A DNA stretch of 60,134 nt from an uncultured Candidatus Saccharibacteria bacterium (GTDB lineage: Bacteria; Patescibacteriota; Minisyncoccia; UBA6257; 2-01-FULL-56-20): positions 1 through 60,134 of the forward strand of contig CAZDFQ010000005.1 in the NCBI GenBank assembly GCA_964505005.1. The letters run 5' to 3'. The first letter of the stretch is position 1, and every line of letters begins with the position of its first letter. Below are positions 12,069-47,187 of this stretch, one piece after another. The position numbers were made by a program, and so were the translations under genes. The notes beneath the pieces are model-generated. The model did not search any database and was not told where the DNA came from. It saw only the letters and a list, made by a program, of their open reading frames with translations.

Positions 12069-12188
12069 ATACTTATTTGCGCGATTCGAATTTCTCGAAT
12101 TCCACTCGAATGCCCCGAAGGCTTATTTGGAAGATTTTTATTTTATTCGAGCGATTCGAGTGCGTTCGCGTAGTCCGAGTTGCGTTAA

Positions 12189-15100
12189 TTATATGACGAC
12201 GATTCCGGCCAGCTTGTCTCCTGATTTTAGGTTCATTATTCGGACTCCCTGGGCCGAGCGGCCGGTCAGGCGGATTTCTTTCAAAGAGGTTCTGATGACC
12301 TGACCTTTTTCCGAAAGCGCCAGGAGTTCGGTCTGGTCTTTAATAACCTGAGCGGCAACTACTTGTCCTGTTTTTGCTGTTACTTTGGCAGTTCTGATGC
12401 CGGCACCGCCGCGATTCTGAATTTTATACTCCTTAAGAGGCGTTTTCTTGGCAAAACCGCTTGCCATCACCACCAAAACCAGCAAATCGCCTATCGCCAA
12501 TCGCTTGTCGTCCGACGATTTGCTCTTTGCTCTTTGCTCTTTGCTATATTTTATTATATCAAACCCGGCCACTTCGTCTTCCTGCCCGCCACCGGCTTGC
12601 GCCGAAGGCGCTGGCAGGCGGGCTTTTCTAAGGCGGATGGCCCGGATACCGGCCGCCGCCCGGCTCATTGATCTTATCTGCGATTCTTTAAAATGAATGG
12701 ATTGGCCGTTCCTGGTTGCCAGGATTACTTCGTCTTGGCCGCTGGAAAGCCGCACCCATTTCAGGGCATCACCTTTCTTTAAAGAAATAGCGATGATGCC
12801 AGTCCGTCTTATGTTTTTAAAGTCCTCGATTTTGGTTTTTTTAATCAGGCCGTTTTTGGTTGCCATTATTAAGAATTTATCTTTTGCCTCTTGTTTGTCC
12901 GCTGCCTCTTGTTTGTCCGCCGCAGCTTCAGCGGAGGACCTTTTGTCGCTATAATTTATGACCGCACTGACGTTCTCATCAGCCGGCAGTTCCAAGAAAT
13001 TGTGGATAGCTCGGCCCTTGGAAACGCGGCTGGCCGCTGGGATTTCATACGCTTTGGTCTGGAAAACCCGGCCAGCGTCAGTGAAGAACAAAATATTGTC
13101 GTGCGTTTTGGCGCTGAAAAACTGGGTGATGAAATCCTCTTCGCCAACCTCTGAGCCAATCAGGCCCTTGCCGCCTCTTTTTTGTGACCGGAACAGATTG
13201 GGCGGCAGGCGCTTTACATAACCACTGGCCGAAAGCGTTATAACCGCTTCTTCTTCAGGGACCAAATCTTCTTCTCGGAATTCTTTCATCCCGCTTGGAA
13301 CGACCTGGGTTCTCCGTTCATCGCCGTATTTCTCTTTCAATTCTTTGACTTCATTTTTGATGATGGTCAGAATTTTCGCCGGACTTTTGAGAATCAGTTC
13401 TAATTCTTTGATGAGTTCGAGTTTTTCTTTGAGCTCGTCCTCAATTTTTCTCCGTTCCAGGGCGGCCAGGGCCTGCAGCCGCATTTCGAGAATGGCATTG
13501 GCTTGAAGCTCACTCAACTTGAACTGCTTGACCAAATTTTGGTGCGCCTCGTCTTTGTCTTTTGATTTTTTGATGAGAGCGATGACTTTGTCGATGACCC
13601 CCAGCGCTTTGGCCAAGCCAGTTAAGATGTGGGCGCGCTCCTGGGCTTTTTTCAAATCAAATTCGGTGCGCCGGCGGACGACTTTTTTGCGGTAATCGAG
13701 ATAGGCAATCAAGATGTCCTTCAGGGTCAGGAGTTGCGGCTGAAGGCCGTCAACCAAGGCAATCATATTTAAATGAAAGTATTTTTGGAGGTCGGTGGAT
13801 TGATACAGCTGGTTGAGGATTTTTTGCGGGGCCGCGTCGTTTTTCAGCTCAACCACAATGCGCAACCCCCCGCGGTCGGATTCGTCGCGGATGTCGCGGA
13901 CTCCCTCGATTTTTTTGTTCTGCACCAGTTCGGCGATATGTTTGATGAGTTCGGCTTTGTTGACCTGATAGGGGATTTCAGTAACTACAATATCCCAGCC
14001 CGAGGCTGGTCCGCCTTTGGCGGAGAATTTGCGGCTTCGCTCCTGAATATCGGCCTTGGCTCTGCAGAGAATCGGCCCTTTGCCGGAAACATAGGCCTCG
14101 GCAATGGCTTTCTGGTCAAAGATGATTCCGCCGGTCGGGAAATCCGGACCTTTGACGAATTTCAAAAGCTCTTCGGCCCCGGCTTCGGGATTGTCCGCGA
14201 GATAGAGAATCGCGTCAGCCAATTCATTTAAATTGTGCGGCGGAATACTGGTGGCCATGCCGACGGCAATACCCAGGCCGCCGTTCAAAAGAAGGTTGGG
14301 TAGCTTGGCCGGCAGAACCTTTGGCTCCTGCCGGGTGGCGTCGTAGTTCGGCTGCCAGTCAACGGTCTCTTTTTCAATATCCACTAAGAGTTCTTCGGCG
14401 ATTTTTGCGAGGCGCGCCTCGGTATTGTGATTGATAAAACCGTTACCGACAAATGAATGACAATCGCTCTTAACCTTTATTGAATAAACGGTTTGGATCT
14501 CTTTTTTTTCTATTTTCGTTATCGGGTCGAAAATATAGGTATTGGCAAGGAGATTCTGGAATAAGGCCTCTATATTCATTTTTAGAGCTGGTTCAAGAAC
14601 GGCCACTACTTGGCGGTAGTTTCTCTCCATATTGGCATAACGGTCAAAATTGTTCTTAACGACAAATTCTTTTGTTTCAAATTTTTGTCGGAGATTGAGC
14701 GAGAAACGAGCGAAATCGCTTATAAAAGGCACGAAATCGGTTTGAGAATAATCCTTGTGAAGTCGAAGAATTGCTTCGTTCAATTTCCTTCTTTTCAGAG
14801 GAGAAAGAAACCCGATTTCTCTTTGAAAAGCGATATAGTTTTTAAGTCCCCTGAGGTAGAGTTTGTGGGTGTGGCGATAGGCGTCAAATCTTTTTGTCGA
14901 GGCGATACCGAATTTCAAAAGGACGATTTGTAATTGGTTTATTAAAGCTTCGCTTGTAGAGATGGCAGACAACTCCGTCATTTTTCCGCTATAACTAATA
15001 CTTCCATCGCCTTCGAAATAGGCCGCAAGAAAAATCGACATCGCCGACTTCGAGGAATGAAGAATCAGACGGGGGATCGTGCGGAGCGAAGACTTTTGCG

Positions 15101-16124
15101 GCTCAAGGCCGAGATTTCGCAGAAATTCAATCACATAGCGAGAGTGAATTTCTAAGGCGTGGTAAGGTTTTTTACCAAAGGAATTTGGTTTGCGGCAGAA
15201 ACGATGAAGGCGGCAGTCGGGAAAAGTTTTATGCCATCTTTGCTCAAATTCGTTAATCCAAACTAAATCACTATTACAAAATTCAATTTCATTCTTTTTA
15301 ATCGTTCCCTCTGAAATCAGCGCACCCAGGATATAGGCGAGGTTCTCATCGAGTTCCCTCGGGAGAACTTTCTTCTCGGTCCGTCGATTCTGATGATTGG
15401 GCCAATATTCAATGAGCGAAACATTTTTGTCTGGCCATAATAGATTCGGCGACCTGTCAATAACAGCCACATCTTTCTCTCGGAGTTGTCCCAGGAGTTT
15501 CCAGACGAAGCGGGGCTGGCCGCTGGCAGGATCTTTCTCCCAAGTAAGAATGGGGTGGTTGAACGACCCTTGAATAGAGAAGCCGTTTTGAGTTTCTATT
15601 TTCAGGGTGGGATGTTCCCCTGAGTTGAACCATTTGGTGGCGCGATTGACAATCCTGTCCTTAGAAAGAATCTTTATTTCGATGTCTTCTTCCTGTTTGT
15701 TGGCGTTAACGACCATCTCCTTAATAGGTACAAGTCCATCCTCGGTGGATATAAGGGTATCGCCGGTAACGCAATATCTCATGGCTGCCGGGCTGTCGCC
15801 ATCGATCGAACCCCAATTGCCCTGACCGTTAATCAAGGGGTAGCGCAACGAGAAATCCTGCGCCATCCGAGCCAAGGCGTCATAGACCGCAATGTCGCCG
15901 TGCGGGTGATAACGGCCTAAGACTGCACCCACCACATTAGCCGACTTCCGGAATTTGGCATTCGAAGAAAGCCCATCGTCCCACATCGCCCAGAGAATCC
16001 GGCGCTGGACCGGTTTTAAGCCATCGCGGACATCGGGCAAAGCCCGGCTGACGATGACCGACATCGCGTAATCAAGATACGACTCCTGCAGTTCTGAAGT
16101 TATTTCCCGCTTTTGGATGTTCAT
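12189..16124 (-). CDS. gyrA: DNA gyrase subunit A, intein-containing
   Basis: [40 protein letters not shown], GyrA-box QKRGGKG. Confidence 0.97.
14424..15773 (-). mobile_element. intein (450 aa) with LAGLIDADG homing endonuclease
   Basis: Y|CVTGDT...FINHN|T; block B SFNHPIL; [12 protein letters not shown] and [10 protein letters not shown]. Confidence 0.95.
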
Positions 16125-16219
16125 ACGCTTACGTTAAATAATCCTAATCTCCGAATGCATTCGAATGATACGAATGATTATTTTATTCGTAGCATTCGTT
16201 AAAAATTTGCATTATGTTT

Positions 16220-17164: not shown

Positions 17165-17389
17165 AATAGTTTAATCGAAAAATCGTTGTTTCGCAATAAC
17201 CAAATTTGCCATTTTTAAATTTATCATTTACAATTGAAGACAATCTCATAAATCAAATTTACATTCGCAGCATTCGCATCCATTCGTAGATTAGCATTAT
17301 ATTCAAGCCGTTTGACCACAATGCGAATGACCCGAATTATATGCGAATGATGCGAATTGAATTGGATAATAACAAGCATAAAACAGAAA

Positions 17390-29990: not shown

Positions 29991-30340
29991 ACGGAGGAAG
30001 CCCGATGCTCCAGCCAGCTGCCAGCCGATAAAGCGCCCAAAAGAGGAAACTCTGCGGGCGCTTTGCATTTTAATAATCCGACTTCTTATTTCATTCGCAT
30101 CATTCGCATAAGAATTCGCCCGCCTGCCAAAGCCTGTCAATCAAATTTTAGTAGTGATTTCAAAACGGTCGGAAATGTCCAAATTATTATCCCAGTCATC
30201 TTAGAAGGCAATTGGCGGGCAGGTATTATTCGCATTATGTTAAGCCGCTTAAAATATAATGCTAATCTACGAATTAGTTCGAATGATGCGAATAATGTTT
30301 TCCACTTGATAATCGTAATTATTGAGTTATACTGCTGGAG

Positions 30341-30850: not shown

Positions 30851-30968
30851 AAGCATTGAAACCATCAGCATAAATCAGCTGCCATCAGCATTTATCAGCG
30901 TTTTGCGGAGATTCAAGTTCAAGACCGCTGATTTATGCTGATAATGGTTGATTGATGCGGATTTTTAT

Positions 30969-32366
30969 ATGAGGAGGATTTATTTCGACTACGCGGCTTC
31001 GACGCCGGTTGACCCCAGGGTTGAAGCCGCAATGCGGCCTTATTTTTCAGAAAAATTCGGCAATGCTTCTTCGCTCCATTCATTTGGACAGGAGGCCTTA
31101 GCGGCGGTTGACAACGCGCGCGAAACCATTGCGAAAGCCATCGGGCGTCCGCCAGCCGGCGGATTCCGCGAAATAATTTTCACCGGCTCGGCCACCGAAG
31201 CGAACAATTTGGCGCTCCGCGGCGTCATTAACGCGACTCGAAAAACTCGAATTTCACTCGAATTATCCGAAAAAAACCATTCGAGTCATTCGGGTGTATT
31301 CGTAGATTCGGGTCGCGTAAGGATGATTGTATCATCCATTGAGCATGAATCCATTCTGGAAACCGCCCGCGACCTTGAAAACGAAGGCCGCACTGAAGTC
31401 GTCTATTTGCCGGTTGATAAGAGCGGCCTGATTGACCTTGAAGAACTGAAAAAATCTTTGACTGAAAATACGATTCTTGTTTCGGTCATGTATGCTAATA
31501 ATGAGATTGGGACAATTCAGCCGGTCGCGGAAATTTCGAAAATAATTTCAGAATTTAGAAAACAGAAAATAGAAAATAGAAACACGAAAAATTCTATATT
31601 CTACTTTCTAAATTCTAAATTCTATCCCTTATTCCACACCGACGCTGTTCAGGCCTTCCAGTATCTTGATTGCGACGTCAATAAACTCGGCGTTGACTTG
31701 ATGACTTTGTCAGGTCATAAAATCTACGGGCCGAAAGGTAGCGGCGCGCTGTATATAAGACCTATAGGACTTATAAGTCCTATAGGTCCTATCGTTACCG
31801 GCGGCGGTCAGGAATTCGGGCTTCGTTCCGGCACGGAAAATGTGCCGGCCATTGTTGGTTTTGGCAAAGCCGTCGAGTTGGCCACGGCGGTTCGTGAAAA
31901 AGAAGTTAAGAGAGTCGGGAAGCTCCGCGATTATTTCTGGCAGGGGCTGAAAAAAGTTTATCCGAAAGCGGAAATTAATGGAGCCGCGACCCGAAAAATT
32001 CGAACCTCATCCGAATTACCCGAAAAAAATAAAAATCATTCGGGGCATTCGGATGCATTCGCCCGCCCGCCTTCGAGTTGCCGAAGGCAAGTCGGGCAGG
32101 TAGATTCGGATTGCTTACCCAATATTCTGAACGTTTATTTCCCGGATTATCGGGCCGACGAACTGCTCACCCGCTTTGATTTAGTGGGCTTAGCAGTTTC
32201 TGCTGGTTCGGCCTGTTCCAGCCGGTCAGCCGAGCCTTCCTATATTATAAGGGCGCTTGGCCATGATAATGAACGGGCGAAAAGAAGCCTTCGTTTCAGT
32301 TTCGGCCGACCGACAACCAGAAAGGATATTGACAAGGCGCTAAAAATCATTAGAGGATTAATATAA
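30969..32366 (+). CDS. iscS: cysteine desulfurase with five in-frame repeat insertions
   Basis: YFDYAASTP, ATEANN, HTDAVQ, SGHKIYGPKG, RSGTENV, SAGSACSS. Confidence 0.93.
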   Translation: MRRIYFDYAASTPVDPRVEAAMRPYFSEKFGNASSLHSFGQEALAAVDNARETIAKAIGRPPAGGFREIIFTGSATEANNLALRGVINATRKTRISLELSEKNHSSHSGVFVDSGRVRMIVSSIEHESILETARDLENEGRTEVVYLPVDKSGLIDLEELKKSLTENTILVSVMYANNEIGTIQPVAEISKIISEFRKQKIENRNTKNSIFYFLNSKFYPLFHTDAVQAFQYLDCDVNKLGVDLMTLSGHKIYGPKGSGALYIRPIGLISPIGPIVTGGGQEFGLRSGTENVPAIVGFGKAVELATAVREKEVKRVGKLRDYFWQGLKKVYPKAEINGAATRKIRTSSELPEKNKNHSGHSDAFARPPSSCRRQVGQVDSDCLPNILNVYFPDYRADELLTRFDLVGLAVSAGSACSSRSAEPSYIIRALGHDNERAKRSLRFSFGRPTTRKDIDKALKIIRGLI

Positions 32367-39078: not shown

Positions 39079-39263
39079 TCTGGCAATCAGCATAAATCAG
39101 CTATCATCAGCATTTATCAGTGTTGCCGGCAAAGGAAAAGTTTTTGACACTGATTTATGCTGATTTCGGCGGATTTATGCCGATATTATTAATCCGTTGT
39201 AGAGAAAGCCGGTTTCCGGCAATCAGTTGACTTTTTTCCTCCTTTGCCGCTAAAATACTCCTG

Positions 39264-39992: not shown

Positions 39993-40648
39993 AGGCATCC
40001 GAAAGCGCTTGTCAAATGCGCCCACCCGAATTCGTGTAACTTTCGTGTAACTATTGTGTAACCATTTAATTCTTTACTTCGTTATAAGTTATGCCAAGCC
40101 GTTAGATGCTGTGAATTGGAAGTTATCCACAGATTTTTTATTCCGGCTTTGCTATAATATAGTTCGTCCTCCAAAATTTTGTAATTTTGTTAGCCAAAAT
40201 TTAGGAGGATAAAGGTTCAGAGTGAGGCTGAACCAAGGAGTAATCGCCAATACCGCGAATTTTAAGCAAATAATGCGAATTCGCGTTATTGAATTCAGAT
40301 TCGTGTTATTCGCGAATACTCCATTGGCCTCGCTTTGAATCAAGCGAGTTTTTTATTGAATAATGCGAATACGCGAATCTTATGCGAATGATGCGAAATA
40401 TTAAATTTAAATAATGATATCAACACCCGGTTTTTCATTTTTCTGCCACTAATCCTCCCGCCATCCTCACTGGTGGCGAGGCTCGCCCCGAAAGGCGGCA
40501 CTTAGATTGGCGGTGGGTCGAAGTGGAGAATCGCGGTTGTCCGGAAATTTAAAGGTCGTGCGGTCCTATGGGCCTATAAGACCAATAAGTCCTATAAGTC
40601 CAATAGGTCCTATAAGTTAAAATAAAAAAGTCGAAAAATAAAAAATAA

Positions 40649-43600
40649 ATGAGTACAAGTAAAAAAATTGCATCGATTGCGCTTTCTGTCACCACCGGAG
40701 TGTGGATGTCGGGAGCGCTTTTTTTGCTTCCAGTAGCTCAAGCCCAGAATGCTTCTGGCATTCAGGCGCAGATTAACGCTTTGCTCACCCAGATTCAGCA
40801 GCTCCAGGCCCAGCTCCAAACAGCTCAGGGCGGAGCCGCTGCTTGCAGTTTCACCCGCTCCCTCACAGTGGGTTCAACTGGAAATGATGTGAAATGTCTG
40901 CAGCAGTACCTTAACGGCGCTGGCTACAAAGTGGCTGCCAGCGGCGCTGGTTCGCCCGGCAATGAGACAACCTATTTTGGTCCGGCGACCAAAGCCGCAG
41001 TTCAAAAATGGCAGGCCGCTAGCGGCGTTACTAATAGTGGCTACTTTGGTCCGCTTTCCCGGGCCAAGTACACCTCATTGGCTGGCGGAGCGGCCCCGAC
41101 AACCGGCGGCGCGCCAACCACCGGCGGAACGCCACAGCTTCCTGCTCCGGCTTCCGGCCTGGCAGTTAGCTTGGCTTCAGACAATCCACCGGCTGGTTCC
41201 CTGGTGGCTGGCTCAGGCCGAAATCGGGTCTTGAGAGTCAGCTTGACTGCCGGTAATGCTTCCGGGGTCACCGTTTCTGACATTAAGTTCAGAAAGACCG
41301 GCGTTGTTTCGGACAGCCAGATTACCGGCGCCTACTTGACGGAATCAGGCCAGGTGATTGCGCAGTATCAGTCGCTTTCCAACGGCGTGATTGATATTCC
41401 GGTGAACTTGTCAATCGCCGCAGGTCAAACAAGAACCTTCGGATTGTCGATTGACATTTCCACCGGCGCGTCTGCCGGCAACACGATCAGCTTCCAGCTT
41501 GCTTCAGTAAATGACATTACGTCTACTGACGCGAGCGGCAACGCGGTCGCCGAAGCCGGCCTTTTCCCGATTAACGGCAATACCTTTACGGTAACCAAGG
41601 TTTCCAGTCCTGACCTCGCCAGTTTGAGCGTGGCTTCGAGCTCAATCGGGAGCTCGGTTAATGCCGGCACCCAAGCGGTCATTGTCGGCGCTTGGAATCT
41701 TACGGCTACAAACAGCAAAGTTTGGCTGCAGAATATCAAGTTCACGGTCGTCGGTTCGGCGAATCCGGCCGATATTCGGAACATAAAGCTGCTCGTCAAC
41801 GGCACGCAATACGGCAGCGCTTTAGCCGCCTTGCCTCCGTCGAATATCGCCTACTTTGACTTGTCGTCCAACCCGGCGCAAATCAACACCGGCTCGAACA
41901 ATGTCCAGCTTTATGCTGATGTGATGGGCTCGCCGAACAAGGATTTCCAGTTTGAAATTCTCAATTCCTTTGACATTTACGCCCTGGACTCTCAGTACAA
42001 TGTCTCAATTACTGGCGCAGCCAGTGTCGGAACGAAGGTATCCATCAATACCGGCACGATTACGGTCAGCGCCGATTCAGGGACGCCGACCGGCAATGTT
42101 GCCAAAGGACAGACCGGCGTAACGCTCGCCAAGTTTGATATTTACGCTGCTGGCGAAGCGGTGCGGGTCAAATTCATCGGCTTTAGTCTCGCCTTGACAG
42201 GCGTGGTGACAAGCACTTCAGCGTCAACACTCTCGAGTTTCGTCAAGAACGTGGCGCTGACTGATGATGCCGGCGGCCAGGTTGGGACAACGATTAACAC
42301 GCCGCCCACCGCCACTTCGTGCGACGCCGGTTCAGGTTCGATAAGCGGCTGGGCAACAAACACCTTTGCCGGACAAGGCACGTTTAGCGGCTCTTCTGCT
42401 GCTACCTACGTGGATTGTTTCGGTACAGGCAGTTCGAACATAAACTACACCGTGCCGGCAAACACCACGAGAGTGCTCTCGCTTAAAGCAGACCTCCAGT
42501 CGCCATCAAGTCCGGCGACATTCGGCACAATCACAGCTGCTCTTATCGCCGAGACCTCAAACTTGCAGGGCTTGGTTTCCAGCCAGACCAACTCCAGCGG
42601 CGCGGCATCAGGTAGCTCTCTGACCCTTGCCGCGAGCTCGCTGACGGTTGCCCAGAACAGCGCGCTTGGCACGCAAAATGTCGGCCGGGGCGCGAGCAAC
42701 GTAAAAATCGGTTCCTACGCGCTTACGGCTTCCTCGGCTGAAGGCGTGAATATCTCGAACATCACGATTCAGAGCGCGACAACTTCAACCTCGCCGTATC
42801 CGTTGCAGAACCTGAAAGTCAAAGTCGGCAGCACGCAGTTCGGCACAACCCAGCCGACGCTTTCTTCCGGCGGCTCCTACTCGTTCTCCGGAACGCCAAT
42901 TGCGATTCCTATCGGCAGCACGGTTTATCTTGATGTCTACGCCGATATTCTGTCTTCGGCAACAGCCGGAACCTACGCGACATCCACCACGCTTTCGGGC
43001 TGTTCAGCTTCGGGCGCGACTTCGCTCGCGGCCGTCAGCTGCACTCCAACCGGCGGTCAGAATTTGAGCGTGGCGGGTCAGGCGTCGGTTACCGTCACGG
43101 CTGACACCAGCCAGCCCGCTTCCGGACAAATCGTCATGGGCTCAAGCCAGGCCGGCTTAGCGTCATTCCGATTCACTGAAACCTCGAACATTGAGCCGGT
43201 CAAAATCACGATTTTGACCGTGGTTGACCAGGTTTCTTCAACCACCGCGACTAAAGCCGCGTTCTCCAATCTGAACCTCTACAACTCGGCTGGCAGCGTG
43301 GTTGGCACCGCTGGCGCGGCCAGCGCGTCGGGCACCAATATGTACGCCTACACCTTCAACTTCGCCACTCCGATTGTGGTTCCGCAGGCGAACTCGGTGA
43401 CTTATGCCCTGAAAGGCGATGCCGCTTCCTACAGCTCCTCGGGCGCGACCGACAACACCACCCACGTGTTAAAGGTGGCCAATGCTGCCGCGGCAACGGC
43501 TTTTGGCAACACTTCCAATGCCACCAGTTCGGTTACCATCAGCTCGGCTAACGGCAACACGATGACAGTGTTGCGGACAGCCCTGTCTCCTTCAGCAGCC

Positions 43601-44116
43601 GCCATCAACGGTGGCACTCGCTCCGGCAGAAGCTCGCAGGATAACCTCGGCACGCTCACTTTCTCGGCGAACAGCGCCGGCGCCGCGGCCATCAACACGG
43701 TAACCATTACCTTCAGCGGCAATGGTCCGTCGAACACCACCTTCTTGGACGGCGTGACGCTTCTTGACGCCAACGGCAACAACGTTACATTGACGAGCGG
43801 TGTAGCTGTGGCTACTTCTTCTGTGCCCTGCAGTAGCACGACTACCTGTATCAAGAGCTGGAACTTCGGCGCTGGCATCAACAGCGCGTTTGCGGTTAGC
43901 GGCGGCTCATCTTACGCCTTCACATTGAGGGTGGATGACACCAAGGCCTATGGCCCGGTTTCGAACACCTCGATCGGTATTACGGCCGCGATCAATAACG
44001 CGACGGATGTCACCTACACCGATGGTTTGGATAGCGCTGCCACAACTGGCCTCAGCTTCCCGACCAATGTCGTGCCGCTCCAGATCAACTCCGTGGCCTT
44101 CCCGGTTGGCGGATAG
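40649..44116 (+). CDS. large secreted S-layer-like protein with peptidoglycan-binding domain
   Basis: signal peptide, FTRSLTVGSTGNDVKCLQ...YFGPATKAAV, S/T/A/G-rich beta repeats, downstream terminator. Confidence 0.85.
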   Translation: MSTSKKIASIALSVTTGVWMSGALFLLPVAQAQNASGIQAQINALLTQIQQLQAQLQTAQGGAAACSFTRSLTVGSTGNDVKCLQQYLNGAGYKVAASGAGSPGNETTYFGPATKAAVQKWQAASGVTNSGYFGPLSRAKYTSLAGGAAPTTGGAPTTGGTPQLPAPASGLAVSLASDNPPAGSLVAGSGRNRVLRVSLTAGNASGVTVSDIKFRKTGVVSDSQITGAYLTESGQVIAQYQSLSNGVIDIPVNLSIAAGQTRTFGLSIDISTGASAGNTISFQLASVNDITSTDASGNAVAEAGLFPINGNTFTVTKVSSPDLASLSVASSSIGSSVNAGTQAVIVGAWNLTATNSKVWLQNIKFTVVGSANPADIRNIKLLVNGTQYGSALAALPPSNIAYFDLSSNPAQINTGSNNVQLYADVMGSPNKDFQFEILNSFDIYALDSQYNVSITGAASVGTKVSINTGTITVSADSGTPTGNVAKGQTGVTLAKFDIYAAGEAVRVKFIGFSLALTGVVTSTSASTLSSFVKNVALTDDAGGQVGTTINTPPTATSCDAGSGSISGWATNTFAGQGTFSGSSAATYVDCFGTGSSNINYTVPANTTRVLSLKADLQSPSSPATFGTITAALIAETSNLQGLVSSQTNSSGAASGSSLTLAASSLTVAQNSALGTQNVGRGASNVKIGSYALTASSAEGVNISNITIQSATTSTSPYPLQNLKVKVGSTQFGTTQPTLSSGGSYSFSGTPIAIPIGSTVYLDVYADILSSATAGTYATSTTLSGCSASGATSLAAVSCTPTGGQNLSVAGQASVTVTADTSQPASGQIVMGSSQAGLASFRFTETSNIEPVKITILTVVDQVSSTTATKAAFSNLNLYNSAGSVVGTAGAASASGTNMYAYTFNFATPIVVPQANSVTYALKGDAASYSSSGATDNTTHVLKVANAAAATAFGNTSNATSSVTISSANGNTMTVLRTALSPSAAAINGGTRSGRSSQDNLGTLTFSANSAGAAAINTVTITFSGNGPSNTTFLDGVTLLDANGNNVTLTSGVAVATSSVPCSSTTTCIKSWNFGAGINSAFAVSGGSSYAFTLRVDDTKAYGPVSNTSIGITAAINNATDVTYTDGLDSAATTGLSFPTNVVPLQINSVAFPVGG

Positions 44117-44180
44117 AGTCCCTGAGATTTCTGAGTTGATACCGGTTAGCGGTTGCTTAACCGCTTGAACCGGAGACTAA

Positions 44181-44216
44181 ACGCAAGCCCCCATCTTTAT
44201 GGTGGGGGCTTTGCGT
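44181..44216 (+). terminator. GC hairpin after the surface-protein gene
   Basis: ACGCAAGCCCCCATC...GGTGGGGGCTTTGCGT. Confidence 0.6.
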
Positions 44217-44271
44217 TCGCTGATTTATGCTGATAAAGCTGATAAATGCTGATATAATTATAATTAGGTAG

Positions 44272-44676
44272 ATGGCTAAAAAACGAGTGGAAGATTTTTT
44301 GTACGAGAAAGAGTCATACGGAATAAGGGGTGCCTGTTTTGATGTTTATAATAATCTTGGAGGCGGAATTAAAGAAAAAATAATTGAGCGGGCCCTGCTT
44401 AGCGAATTTAAAAAACGCCAGTTAGAAGTTAAAAGTCAAGTTAGAATAAAAATTTTTTATAATAGCGAACATATTGGCATTTACATCCCAGATTTTGTTG
44501 TGAACAATAAAATCATAATTGAGTTGAAATCGAAACCCTTTATAACAAAGATGGACGGAAGACAATTCTGAGGCTATCTTAAAGGTTCACATTATAAATT
44601 GGGACTTCTGATAAACTTCGGCCCACAAAAATTGACCATTAAACGATTTGTCCACACTTTAGAAACATCAGCATAA
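44272..44676 (+). pseudogene. GxxExxY (PD-(D/E)XK-like) protein with in-frame TGA at 44569-44571
   Basis: YNNLGGGIKEK, PDFVV..KIIIELK; reading through TGA gives GYLKGSHYKLGLLINFG...KRF. Confidence 0.85.
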
Positions 44677-44724
44677 ATCAGCCAAAATCAGCATGAATCA
44701 GCGTTAAATAAATTTGTTTTAACT

Positions 44725-47187
44725 GTGAGTCAGAAATTTCTTCTCAAGACAATAATATTCCTGATATTCGTGGCAGTGGTTGGCACGCCGCTTTTTTACG
44801 GCGGCTTGCCGCGGATTTTTAACTTTCAATACATCGCCCAGCAGGTTTACCCCTACACTTTTTCCAAAGAACTTTTTTTTCAGGCCGTTGTTGAGCTGAT
44901 TTTCGGATTTTGGCTGGCGCTGGTAATTATTGAGCCGCGCTTCCGGCCGAAGCTGACGCCGGCAATGAAAGCGCTTTTAATTTTTCTTGCCGTTCTTACT
45001 CTCGCTGCTTTCCTCGGCTTAGACCCCTGGCGGAGCTTCTGGTCAACCTATGAAAGGGGAATCGGCGTGATTGCCATTTATCATTTGGCCGCTCTCGGCT
45101 TGGTTTTAAGTTCGCTTTGGCAGGAGATTCCCTGGCGGAAACTCTTCTTGGCTTCGCTTTGGACATCGGTTATCGTCAGCCTTTTAGCTTGGCTGCAATC
45201 AGGCATCCCTAATCTTCTTCTCATTGAAGAGAAAGCGGCTAGGGGAGCCGGTTTTTTCCGGCCGGGCTCGACCCTCGGCAATCCGACTTTTCTGGACGGC
45301 TATCTGATTTTCAACATTTTTATAGCGGTATATCTTTTGCTGGATGAATTACGCGATGCGAAACTGCCTGCCCGACTTCGCATGGACGAGGTCCAGGCGG
45401 GCGGGCGAATACATGCGAATGTCGCGAATAACTATCCGCATAAATCCGGCGAAATCCGCATAAATCCGCGTTCTACATTATTAATCAGCGCCTTCCTCTT
45501 TCTGTCGGTTATTCTCAATGTAGTTACAATTTTTCTTTCTCAAACCCGCGGCGATATCTTGGCGATTAGCGCCGGTTTCCTGGTTTTGCTGATTTTGTTT
45601 TCTTTGAAACCGCCGGAGCTGCGCTTCAGTTTTTTAAAGGCCCGGAGGATTTACGCCGCTGTTTTTTTGACGGTTGTAATTTTCGGTCTGGGATTTTGGT
45701 TCACCCGCCGGTCCCCCTTCTGGAGCCGTCTGCCTGGCTTGAACCGCTTCCAAGAAGTTTCTTTTGGTGGTAGCGATTTACTGCCTCGGCTGATTGCTCT
45801 CCAAACTGCCTGGAAAGGCTTTTTGGAAAGGCCGGTGCTCGGCTGGGGCCCGGAAAATTTCAACCTTGTTTTTAACAAATATTACGACCCGCGGGCTTTA
45901 ACCGTCAGTTATCAGGAAACCCGTTTTGATAAGCCGCACAATTTTGTTTTTGAATATTTGATTTGGGGCGGCCTGCTTTTAGCTTCGGCTTATTTTACTT
46001 TTTTAGCTATAACGTTTTGGCAGGCCTGGCGCTTCAATCGACTTTTTGGCGATGTCATGTTAGCTGGTTTTGCTACCTATTTCGTCGCTAATTTTTTTGT
46101 TTTTGAAACCATTGGTCCGCTGTTGATGCTTTATCTGATTTTTGGATATAGTGATGGCGCGTATAGGACTAGAGACAAGAGACAAGTTTATCAGCATCAA
46201 TCAGCTGAAACGTCGAAGCAGATGCTGCGCATCGCTCCGGGGCGGGTCGGCATAAATCAGCATAAATCAGCGTTGAACTTGAGGAAGTATTTTGCTTTTG
46301 CTGCTATTGTTGTCGCAATTATTCTGGCTTACTTTTTGAACTTCCAAACCTTTTTAGCTTCCTATTACCACTACTGGGCCTTTCAGTATATGGGCAATGG
46401 TCGTTTTAGCGACGGCATCGAATATTTTAAAAAAGCCATAAACATTTGGACGCCTTACCGTTGGAACTTTGAACGTGATTACGCTATGGCTGTTGTTGAG
46501 GCCTACTTTTATAATCCCGGCGCCATTTCTTCTCAACAAGCCGAAGACGCTCTTCAAGCCATGGAAAACGCCAGAGACGCCCATCCCTTGGACGCTTACA
46601 ATCACTACGCTTTAGTTGATCTTTATAACGAAATTTCTGACCTTAATCTCCCCAAATACACTGCCTTGGCTGAAAAAGAAGCGAAAATCGCTTTGGAACT
46701 TTCTCCTGACCGGCAGGAGGTTTATTTTTCGCTGGCCAAAACAAAAACCTTAAAGAAAGATTATCCGGCCGCCTTGGATTTACTTAAATACACCCTCTCG
46801 CTCGACCCCAAAGTGGCCGACGCTCATTTTTACTACGGCTTAGTTGCTTATGCGGCCGGAGACAATATTACGGGGTATAATGAAATCAAAGAATCCCTGC
46901 GGCTCGGTCGCCAATGGAAAAACGCCAATGAACCTCGAGTGGTGGCTAATTTTTTTGCCGATTCCGGTCATCTGGACGAAGCCATTGATTTATACCAGAA
47001 GTCATTGGAACTGGAACCGCAGAATCCGGAGACGATGATTAAGCTCGGCATCGCTTATTTCTTGGCTGGCAACCGCGACTTGGCAAAAAAATACATCAGC
47101 GAGGTGACAGTCAAATATAATTTAAGGGGAAATCCGTCCTTTGACCAAGTTAAGCCGATTTTGGACTCCTTGGGAATAAAATATTGA
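44725..47187 (+). CDS. O-antigen ligase (Wzy_C/PglL-like) with C-terminal TPRs
   Basis: STLGNP, SQTRG, GWGPENF, FDKPHN; TPR helices. Confidence 0.88.
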   Translation: MSQKFLLKTIIFLIFVAVVGTPLFYGGLPRIFNFQYIAQQVYPYTFSKELFFQAVVELIFGFWLALVIIEPRFRPKLTPAMKALLIFLAVLTLAAFLGLDPWRSFWSTYERGIGVIAIYHLAALGLVLSSLWQEIPWRKLFLASLWTSVIVSLLAWLQSGIPNLLLIEEKAARGAGFFRPGSTLGNPTFLDGYLIFNIFIAVYLLLDELRDAKLPARLRMDEVQAGGRIHANVANNYPHKSGEIRINPRSTLLISAFLFLSVILNVVTIFLSQTRGDILAISAGFLVLLILFSLKPPELRFSFLKARRIYAAVFLTVVIFGLGFWFTRRSPFWSRLPGLNRFQEVSFGGSDLLPRLIALQTAWKGFLERPVLGWGPENFNLVFNKYYDPRALTVSYQETRFDKPHNFVFEYLIWGGLLLASAYFTFLAITFWQAWRFNRLFGDVMLAGFATYFVANFFVFETIGPLLMLYLIFGYSDGAYRTRDKRQVYQHQSAETSKQMLRIAPGRVGINQHKSALNLRKYFAFAAIVVAIILAYFLNFQTFLASYYHYWAFQYMGNGRFSDGIEYFKKAINIWTPYRWNFERDYAMAVVEAYFYNPGAISSQQAEDALQAMENARDAHPLDAYNHYALVDLYNEISDLNLPKYTALAEKEAKIALELSPDRQEVYFSLAKTKTLKKDYPAALDLLKYTLSLDPKVADAHFYYGLVAYAAGDNITGYNEIKESLRLGRQWKNANEPRVVANFFADSGHLDEAIDLYQKSLELEPQNPETMIKLGIAYFLAGNRDLAKKYISEVTVKYNLRGNPSFDQVKPILDSLGIKY

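Follow-up and report, generated by a model that had tools for sequence, protein, structure and literature searches.

A GxxExxY nuclease gene framed by inverted hexamer arrays points to a largely undescribed kind of selfish DNA

The array-framed locus

The DNA analysed here, referred to as the window, is a stretch of 60,134 nt from an uncultured Candidatus Saccharibacteria bacterium and makes up the entire contig C5 of a genome (G000) of 810 kb in 12 contigs, which has 46% GC and is 98.9% complete. At positions 44218-44703 it holds a unit of 486 nt, called the cassette below, in which a small gene of the GxxExxY family, predicted to encode a nuclease of the PD-(D/E)XK type, is framed by short tandem arrays of hexamers in inverted orientation. 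The cassette and its left border comprise the following features.

44179-44217, plus strand: GC-rich, terminator-like hairpin that follows the upstream gene for a surface protein of 1155 aa and marks the left boundary of the insertion
44218-44254, plus strand: left end of the cassette, C and four GCTGAT units, followed by a TATAAT-like sequence 18 nt before the ATG
44272-44676, plus strand: GxxExxY / PDDEXK_3 gene of 134 codons, a pseudogene; the PF13366 and TIGR04256 matches run across the stop
44667-44703, plus strand: right end of the cassette, four ATCAGC units and G, overlapping the last codons and the TAA of the gene

An earlier note on this DNA had described four GCTGAT units before and four ATCAGC units after a GxxExxY open reading frame (ORF), and this observation is confirmed: the left units start at 44219, 44229, 44238 and 44248 (periods of 10, 9 and 10), the right units at 44667, 44677, 44687 and 44697 (period of 10), and the ORF matches both PF13366 and TIGR04256, although the note did not mention its internal TGA. 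Counted together, GCTGAT and its complement are found at 81 places in the window, whereas 100 shuffles gave 28.0 ± 5.5 (maximum 44), and three runs of at least four units at a spacing of 8-12 nt were observed, against none in each of 20 Markov-1 simulations; over the whole genome, the pattern GCTGAT-N3-6-GCTGAT was counted 53 times and the reversed control pattern 0 times. Three DNA runs from one sample, the likely source of the window, were compared as contigs. One of these contigs spans the cassette with neither a joint nor a variant, and the others touch the arrays only.

The nuclease gene and its decay

The ORF matches PF13366 (PDDEXK_3) with an E-value of 1.1e-31 (110.1 bits against a cut-off of 22; profile positions 3-117 of 117) and TIGR04256 ('GxxExxY') over its full length with an E-value of 2.7e-32 (111.5 bits against a cut-off of 35). 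PDDEXK_3 is the sole Pfam match of the flanked gene, which shows no HUH/Y1 (IS200/IS605-like) transposase; a PADLOC search gave no significant match (best E 0.0013) and a PHROGs search no match. The residues of the catalytic triad, D74, E84 and K86, are kept in the window copy, and in a comparison of 71 sequences D74 does not vary and the conservation of E84 and K86 is 90% or higher. Of the name-giving motif, the window copy keeps the G and the E and has I in place of Y (G32-I-K-E35-K-I-I38); in the alignments, the Y of G-x-x-E-x-x-Y is missing from the close clade as well. The structure of the protein was modelled with a pLDDT (predicted local distance difference test) of 94. In a census of PD-(D/E)XK proteins, the entry for PF13366/TIGR04256 reads 'Unknown' (PMC3424549).

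An in-frame TGA lies at 44569-44571, where three close relatives have Trp (RQFW-YLKGS), and is thus a nonsense mutation from TGG to TGA; apart from it, the gene is well kept. For the likely source sample, the contigs of runs X1 and X2 show the stop as well, and the rest of the window and of the genome reads normally in table 11. The window copy is a pseudogene and not an intact working member of the family.

Insertion between flanking genes

The cassette separates two genes of the same direction.

40649-44116, plus strand: surface-protein gene (PG_binding_1; 1155 aa), which adjoins the ligase gene in relatives
44725-47187, plus strand: gene with Wzy_C (O-antigen ligase-like) and tetratricopeptide repeat (TPR) regions

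Their orthologues are adjacent without the cassette in all five family-level relatives examined (L006-L010), where the intergenic length, estimated from the ORF ends, is about 45-170 nt; this is too short for the cassette and accommodates only a terminator-like hairpin, and comparable hairpins fill the short intergenic region in L007-L010. The gap in G000 measures 608 nt, and the 486-nt unit follows directly 3' of the hairpin at 44179-44217, with no outer arms. The short, hairpin-only gaps of the relatives and the position of the unit right after the hairpin together identify what was inserted as the arrays plus the gene: the whole unit, arrays included, is an insertion between the terminator and the next gene. 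The unit has terminal inverted repeats, its borders share TT only, and the relatives are too diverged for an empty site to be defined at base level. As a separate observation, the ligase protein carries an 11-residue insertion near its N-terminus (GGLPRIFNFQY region; window 44785-44830) that is missing from all five orthologues.

Recurrence of the inverted bracket across the family

PF13366 matches four places in G000, and all four are bracketed by inverted arrays, each with a hexamer of its own.

C5:44311: GCTGAT / ATCAGC arrays; one TGA in the gene
C2:90599: GCGAAT / ATTCGC arrays; two TAA within the match
C2:122630: GCGGAT / ATCCGC arrays; gene intact
C2:65474: GCTGAC-GCGGAC / GTCCGC arrays; in frame within a RecG of 906 aa, between DEQHRFG and SATPIPRT

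These paralogues are 28-39% identical, all keep D74, E84 and K86, and two of the four are pseudogenes. In a phylum sample of 301 genomes, PF13366 is present in 39, with 87 matches, at most six copies per genome and stops in seven of the matches. The locus set derived from this sample consists of 73 of the 87 matches in 39 genomes, three partial matches and the 11 weakest being omitted. When exact hexamers repeated at a spacing of 7-13 nt were sought on both sides of the gene, the arrangement was inverted at 33 of the 73 loci and direct at three. In addition, as the more sensitive measure, a bracket score was calculated as the Smith-Waterman score of the 130 nt upstream against the reverse complement of the 130 nt downstream, with the 95th percentile (24) of 702 ordinary ORFs of G000 as the threshold. 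The median score is 32 for the 73 GxxExxY loci and 16 for the 702 ordinary ORF flanks, and inverted flanks above the threshold occur at 55 of the 73 loci, against 7/73 in the direct-orientation control and 3/144 for windows shifted by 400 nt. A GTDB-wide set of 80 loci, 76 of which were testable, gave 51/76, with 7/76 in the direct and 1/145 in the shifted control.

The lineage labels of the GTDB-wide set, some of which may be binning errors, cover many Patescibacteria lineages, Omnitrophota, Gammaproteobacteria, Methylomirabilis, Akkermansiaceae, Pirellulales, Calditrichia, Bacteroidales, Bathyarchaeia and a Helarchaeota bin. Two of its loci, L160 (Helarchaeota label) and L161 (Gammaproteobacteria label), have identical scores in every test and therefore are probably one sequence binned under two names. 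The array-framed unit thus recurs around the GxxExxY family across many lineages, and its genes are generally array-flanked (0.7-10% in the controls), the opposite of what the earlier note had named as a refutation. A link to the tandem heptamers of cyanobacteria (STRR) was looked for, and a tblastn search against plasmids returned four records, none of them cyanobacterial. The copy on a plasmid of cultured Fusobacteria (CP102406.1) has direct repeats of about 50 nt at its flanks, not inverted ones, which shows that the bracket is not universal.

Copies at precise sites within conserved proteins

The cassette is found inserted between genes and also, in frame and in sense orientation, within loops of RecG, LepA and a glycosyltransferase, and copies decay by nonsense mutation, as at the window locus. 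In RecG, it occupies exactly one shared position in G000 and in G027, which belongs to another family of the order (2/25 genomes), while the two halves of RecG abut without it in 23 of 24 relatives, a genome of the same genus included. The two RecG cassettes are 46% identical, and the G027 copy is closer to the cassettes borne by LepA (60-64%); neither RecG cassette has the other as its nearest relative, which speaks for independent insertion at the shared site. In the RecG arms most of the complementarity has been lost (score 20), and the cassette remains in frame. LepA carries a cassette between ITIK-APVRM and LNLIDTPGH in five of 41 genomes (G001, G002, G017, G019 and G038), all of the GCGGAT type, and the same site is occupied in G129, which is from another family. 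In RecG and LepA alike, the extra segment extends from array edge to array edge and amounts to about 155 residues. A further in-frame copy is found in a glycosyltransferase of G031, and in G287 the cassette is fused to the C-terminus of RsmI. With the cassette missing from the surface-protein/ligase junction of all five relatives, and sporadic in RecG (2/25) and LepA (5/41), GxxExxY genes are not syntenically fixed; fixed synteny was an outcome that the earlier note had named as a refutation. A distribution of homing type, in which different lineages sporadically carry the element at one and the same site of a conserved gene, is seen for the family but not for the window locus.

The LepA gene of G000 (C7:15768-16526) contains a gene-less, in-frame doublet of the GCGAA type, with inward-facing arms, exactly at the site where the relatives have their cassette. 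The host codons for V-R-M at this doublet read GTGCGGATG, a native GCGGAT. Such a native GCGGAT in the LepA codons beside the arrays was considered as a target motif and rejected as too weak, being present in G000 and G001 and absent from G002 and G129. Also recorded was a second, gene-less in-frame doublet in the RecG gene of G000 (C2, L100:529-3246, minus strand), further upstream of the full cassette; its translation reads RVNADTTRINAD...IRENPRKNPRES, and seven aligned orthologues either lack it or differ there.

Hexamer words, polarity and selection

In a tree of the 73 proteins, which is based on a short alignment and has many unresolved forks, the motif classes follow the clades. A well-supported group of nine proteins, the window copy among them, is associated with GCNGA(T/A) words, and other groups with TGATT, TACGGA/TACGAA, ACTAAT or (T/G)GCGAA words; the GTDB-wide proteins that are 45-66% identical to that of locus L040 are accompanied by CGCTGA, CGCGGA or GCAGA(T/A) words. 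Each protein clade keeps its own hexamer, and the co-variation of repeat unit and protein clade that the earlier note had asked after is found in both the tree and the GTDB-wide set. The GCNGAT strand lies upstream of the gene in all five GCTGAT-flanked cassettes read by eye, and GCTGAT stands in identical polarity upstream of related genes at L034, L037, L040 and L064.

Selection was estimated from the orthologous cassettes L040 and L064 of two species of one genus, for which the synonymous and non-synonymous divergences are dS 0.30 and dN 0.026 (dN/dS 0.086); by this measure the GxxExxY protein is maintained under purifying selection. Between the same two cassettes, 46 of 48 hexamer positions are unchanged, and the spacers between the hexamers differ in sequence and length, which points to purifying selection on the hexamers as well. 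Among 19 cassettes with clear arrays, spacer complementarity between the arms is 52%, against 31% expected from composition. The hexamer word, the period of about 10 nt and the polarity look like the selected features, as would be the case for a protein-binding array.

Gene-less elements and the wider array landscape

Arrays without a nuclease gene occur elsewhere in the window, among them the following.

30864-30962, no strand assigned: gene-less palindromic doublet of about 100 nt, with four ATCAGC units, a loop of 27 nt and four GCTGAT-type units; fills the gap between two genes
39086-39184, no strand assigned: second gene-less doublet of the same family
45405-45468, plus strand: in-frame doublet of another motif class in the ligase/TPR gene, with three GCGAAT and then three AAATCCG units
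46190-46271, plus strand: in-frame array remnant in the ligase/TPR gene, with two ATCAGC pairs in one orientation, translated as YQHQSA...INQHKSA

The doublets at 30864 and 39086, reported in the earlier note in the order right end, spacer and left end, are present as described, with 36 of their first 39 nt identical (71/99 overall) and with hairpins of -40 kcal/mol (z -5.1) and -41.7 kcal/mol (z -6.1), respectively. They belong to a palindrome family of about 16 copies of about 100 nt in G000 (four ATCAGC units, a loop of about 27 nt, four GCTGAT units), 14 of which can be aligned in one orientation and share conserved 8-mers (ATCAGCAT / ATGCTGAT), a constant asymmetry and a loop that is half conserved. 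The hairpins of the family have about -40 kcal/mol (z -5 to -7), and the palindromes fill gaps of mostly co-directional genes, 6-20 nt from stop and start. In the same-genus genome G001 the family sits at different places; a site orthologous to the 39086 doublet was not found in it, and its contig ends 33 nt past the match to the 30864 locus, where the doublet would begin. One inward-facing GCTGAT doublet is present in G000, upstream of the 16S gene (C9:30125-30183), and the doublets of other motif classes in this genome are mostly inward-facing. The arrays which the earlier note had placed in frame inside the ligase gene are found at 46190-46271, with both unit pairs in ATCAGC orientation, in a loop whose length varies among the five orthologues; the doublet at 45405-45468 adds about 22 residues that are missing from all five.

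Arrays of at least three units number 89 in G000, in many motif classes, and 15 in the window. Only about five of these 15 are of the GCTGAT type and the others belong to sister motif classes, a composition that does not bear out the proposal that one type of element explains much of the repeat content of the window. Six genomes of the phylum sample have at least ten GCTGAT pairs, and five of the six carry GxxExxY genes, against a base rate of 39/301, although these five represent only about two independent lineages. In G193, whose GCTGAT-flanked gene is intact, the arrays that lack a gene are solo runs of four units, each preceded by a conserved AGCAAGC; the pattern has 58 matches, nearly all on one strand of the largest contig, a strand bias that suggests a link with the direction of replication.

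Several side observations concern the same landscape. On contig C1 of G193 (L118-L129), the solo arrays between 41 and 538 kb are almost all on the plus strand, regardless of the direction of the neighbouring genes. Further arrays of at least three units at a spacing of 8-12 nt lie in the window at 12086-12159, 16152-16176, 17262-17286, 30093-30119, 31236-31262, 32037-32061, 40034-40062 and 40365-40389, in or beside gaps between ordinary genes, with the words TCGAAT, CGAATG, ATTCGC, ACTCGAA, CATTCGG, GTGTAAC and GCGAAT. The GyrA gene of the window (12189-16124, minus strand; 1311 aa) has, as judged from its translation only, an apparent intein-like insert after a conserved motif, ...AMRY-C.

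G000 also contains ten genes for four-helix-bundle proteins (23S_rRNA_IVP), one of which, at C9:30762-31079, lies with its inverted arrays inside the 16S rRNA gene, around the 515 region. The window locus is intergenic and not in an rRNA gene, and an Rfam search of the window returned two tRNAs only. In a side observation, ordinary genes for an ABC ATPase, a uridylate-kinase-like protein and a secretion ATPase (C1:5746-6429, C3:84303-84995 and C2:124918-126630) were seen to be flanked by long palindromes of TCTAAA / ATCCTAAA words, a word class that also frames four-helix-bundle genes.

A decaying selfish cassette and its alternatives

We read the locus, with a probability of about 0.55, as a decaying selfish cassette of about 486 bp, in which one gene for a GxxExxY protein of about 125 residues and PD-(D/E)XK type lies between inverted arrays, each of four hexamers that recur about once per helical turn. 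Support for a mobile cassette with array ends comes from the insertion polymorphism, the generality of the bracket relative to controls, the clade-specific words, the decay and the recurrence at the same sites; an active role of the nuclease, reading the arrays and moving the cassette, is what we infer from this design. In the mechanism that we propose, the encoded protein would recognise the hexamers as its binding sites, in the manner of the multi-site ends of Tn7 and Mu or of the repetitive extragenic palindromic (REP) sequences recognised by REP-associated tyrosine transposases (RAYTs). The nuclease might cut at its own ends or at target sites, and break repair or recombination could then copy the cassette into new sites or empty alleles, resulting in a homing-like spread. 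Gene-less arrays of the same hexamer, such as the doublets of about 100 nt in G000 and the solo arrays of G193, would be non-autonomous or relic partners of the protein. A long stem like that of rRNA intervening sequences may form between the arms of the transcript, probably as a by-product and not as the feature under selection.

On a wider scale, and as a tentative proposal that we hold to be somewhat improbable in its entirety, GxxExxY proteins would be array-reading nucleases that drive the smallest autonomous mobile elements known from bacteria, of about 0.5 kb, with one protein of 125 residues and ends of 3-5 oriented hexamers. Such elements would combine homing with transposition into intergenic gaps, rRNA and in-frame loop positions of essential proteins (RecG, LepA); the design would include, as special cases, the ORF-bearing rRNA intervening sequences and the four-helix-bundle (S23p/IVP) cassettes, and gene-less arrays (palindromic doublets and strand-biased solo arrays) would be non-autonomous progeny accounting for much of the repeats of ultra-small bacteria.

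Several results weigh against a cassette moved by its own nuclease. The principal one concerns the four-helix-bundle genes, nine of ten of which have inverted flanks above the threshold, with words including TCTAAA, CACATAT and TAGAAA; a bracket around genes that encode no nuclease implies that the nuclease is not needed for the design. Nuclease activity, DNA binding and transposition of GxxExxY members are predicted only, the predicted fold matches generic PD-(D/E)XK cores (Cas4 SSO0001, lambda exonuclease and Hjc) at a TM (template modelling) score of about 0.45, and a sequence search of the PDB gave no match below E 0.5, and thus no solved relative. No clear target-site duplication was found at the cassette borders, which have at most TT in common. 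The bracket is not significant at 18 of 73 and 25 of 76 loci, one clade of four proteins is without it, and some loci carry direct repeats in place of inverted ones. The correlation of clade and motif could arise from co-inheritance alone, and among 26 labelled cassettes no alignment column separates the classes, i.e., no residue tracks the variable third base (GCT/G/A-GA). The divergence of the LepA cassettes is similar to that of their host proteins, and these cassettes may go back to an old insertion with vertical descent and repeated loss. In G152, 27 GCTGAT pairs are present, yet both GxxExxY genes are flanked by other motifs. Finally, the arms of the GCTGAT doublets face outward and those of the cassette inward, and this opposite orientation means that the doublets cannot be derived from the cassette by internal deletion. 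The earlier note had taken the gene-less copies for the cassette minus its gene; they are instead a palindromic family of their own, of about 100 nt and with a conserved loop. Its interpretation as a whole, of elements whose ends are short arrays, is partly supported: the bracket and the insertion are seen, but the design is not specific to the nuclease (nine of ten 23S_rRNA_IVP genes are bracketed) and the gene in question is a pseudogene.

The features of the locus may also be explained at the level of RNA. The arrays would then be selected as a stem like that of rRNA intervening sequences, RNase III would cut this stem and thereby release or insulate a small mRNA or clear the insert from rRNA, and the GxxExxY gene would be cargo with a cellular role of its own, moved by host recombination or a factor acting in trans. 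In agreement with this, both the minimum free energy and the centroid fold of 44205-44715 pair 44218-44254 with 44667-44703 around the ORF (z -4.1), the bracket is common to two unrelated protein families, and a four-helix-bundle cassette does lie inside the 16S rRNA gene of G000. By the published accounts, RNase III excises the 23S intervening sequence of Coxiella, in which GACAGAT heptamers stand in tandem ahead of the S23p ORF (PMC4990558), and 23S_rRNA_IVP ORFs occur in 16S and 23S insertions of the candidate phyla radiation (CPR; PMC11270868). However, a stem needs complementary spacers, which reach 52% only and drift between orthologues while the hexamers are conserved, and it needs neither a period of about 10 nt nor a fixed polarity relative to the gene. 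Moreover, the RecG arms have lost most of their complementarity with the cassette still in frame, which fits translation through the insert and not excision from RNA. We regard this explanation as unlikely, although it is the strongest of the alternatives.

Somewhat less probable still is that the arrays are a pervasive intergenic repeat family, spread by another agent, by slippage or by gene conversion, in which the GxxExxY and four-helix-bundle genes are passengers that were captured or mobilised in trans. The 89 arrays in many motif classes far exceed the four GxxExxY and ten IVP genes of G000, arrays without a matching gene are present in G152, and the distance from doublets to the stops and starts of ordinary genes is 6-20 nt, which leaves such genes bracketed as well. 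Against this, the bracket score is reached by about 5% of ordinary ORFs and by 75% of GxxExxY genes, the inserted unit in RecG and LepA is exactly the arrays plus the gene, and motif class tracks protein clade across many phylum-level lineages. The protein might also bind the arrays only for its own regulation, as in an addiction or toxin-like module, with incidental mobility. Hexamers at helical-turn spacing are typical of cooperative repressor sites, and the left array abuts the TATAAT-like box 18 nt before the ATG, which would suit an operator; nevertheless, an operator leaves unexplained the inverted array downstream, the gene-less copies, the promoterless in-frame copies and the same-site recurrence in RecG and LepA, and the PADLOC search gave no significant match. 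We consider this possibility very improbable.

Relation to known systems

The ends of Tn7 and Mu consist of several oriented transposase-binding sites in inverted arrangement, and TnsA of Tn7 is a PD-(D/E)XK nuclease that acts in excision. The cassette resembles them in that its ends are repeated, oriented and inverted units, at which binding is putative; it differs in its size of about 0.5 kb, in having a single protein of 125 residues with no DDE transposase or ATPase, and in the lack of a clear target duplication. The PD-(D/E)XK fold is also that of a homing enzyme, I-Ssp6803I. Like homing endonuclease genes, whether free-standing or borne by introns and inteins, the nuclease gene occurs sporadically at one precise site of a highly conserved gene (RecG, LepA) in distant genomes and in decaying copies. 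Unlike them, it is accompanied by no intron or intein that restores the host product, the insert being simply translated; it has array ends, and its family is also found at many unrelated intergenic sites. Homing endonuclease genes of the LAGLIDADG and GIY-YIG types are described in rRNA insertions of the CPR (PMC11270868).

A literature search that left supplementary tables aside (Table S4 of PMC11270868 may list PDDEXK_3 ORFs) found no account of GxxExxY cassettes with flanking arrays. The closest published systems are the ORF-bearing rRNA intervening sequences and the REPIN/RAYT systems, in which REPINs are REP doublets forming hairpins. The 428-nt intervening sequence in the 23S rRNA gene of Coxiella burnetii, as portrayed in PMC4990558, shares with the cassette a small ORF of unknown function (S23p) inside a stem-forming inverted sequence, tandem short repeats beside the ORF (GACAGAT, three to four times), a sporadic distribution and a decaying ORF, and it is termed selfish by its authors; the four-helix-bundle cassette in the 16S gene of G000 is of the same design. 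The window locus, in contrast, is intergenic and encodes a PD-(D/E)XK protein and not S23p/23S_rRNA_IVP, related cassettes are part of protein reading frames, in which excision not followed by ligation would fail, and gene-less array elements are dispersed through the genome.

With the REPIN/RAYT systems, or REPtrons, as characterised in PMC3116915 and PMC3337134, the cassettes share inverted copies of a short repeat at the flanks of a gene, a repeat specific to the gene clade, and dispersed, intergenic, gene-less inverted doublets that form hairpins, albeit with doublet arms that are reversed here relative to the cassette. RAYTs, however, are HUH/Y1 transposases, whereas the fold here is PD-(D/E)XK; a RAYT is flanked by single REPs and not by arrays of 3-5 hexamers; and RAYTs are described in these sources as single-copy and mostly vertically inherited, whereas GxxExxY genes occur in several copies, with a patchy distribution and frequent decay. 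GxxExxY cassettes are, in addition, commonly inserted in frame into genes. Translated in-frame palindromes are described for the Rickettsia palindromic elements (PMC10969869), comparable to those at 45405-45468 and 46190-46271 in the ligase gene and in LepA of G000; by that description, the elements at hand differ in sequence family and host, in arms made of hexamer arrays and in full versions that carry a gene.

Significance

PF13366/TIGR04256 is a large orphan family of several phyla, and if its proteins read the arrays that flank their genes, the function of the family becomes directly testable. The movement of ORF-bearing rRNA intervening sequences is an old open question, for which the design of the cassette offers a concrete and testable mechanism. 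For annotation, it is relevant that arrays break assemblies, as at the contig end in G001, and that translated arrays produce spurious peptide tails. If true, the proposed reading would explain in-frame inserts of about 155 residues in conserved proteins of ultra-small bacteria, and the array-framed nuclease gene points to a largely undescribed kind of selfish DNA.

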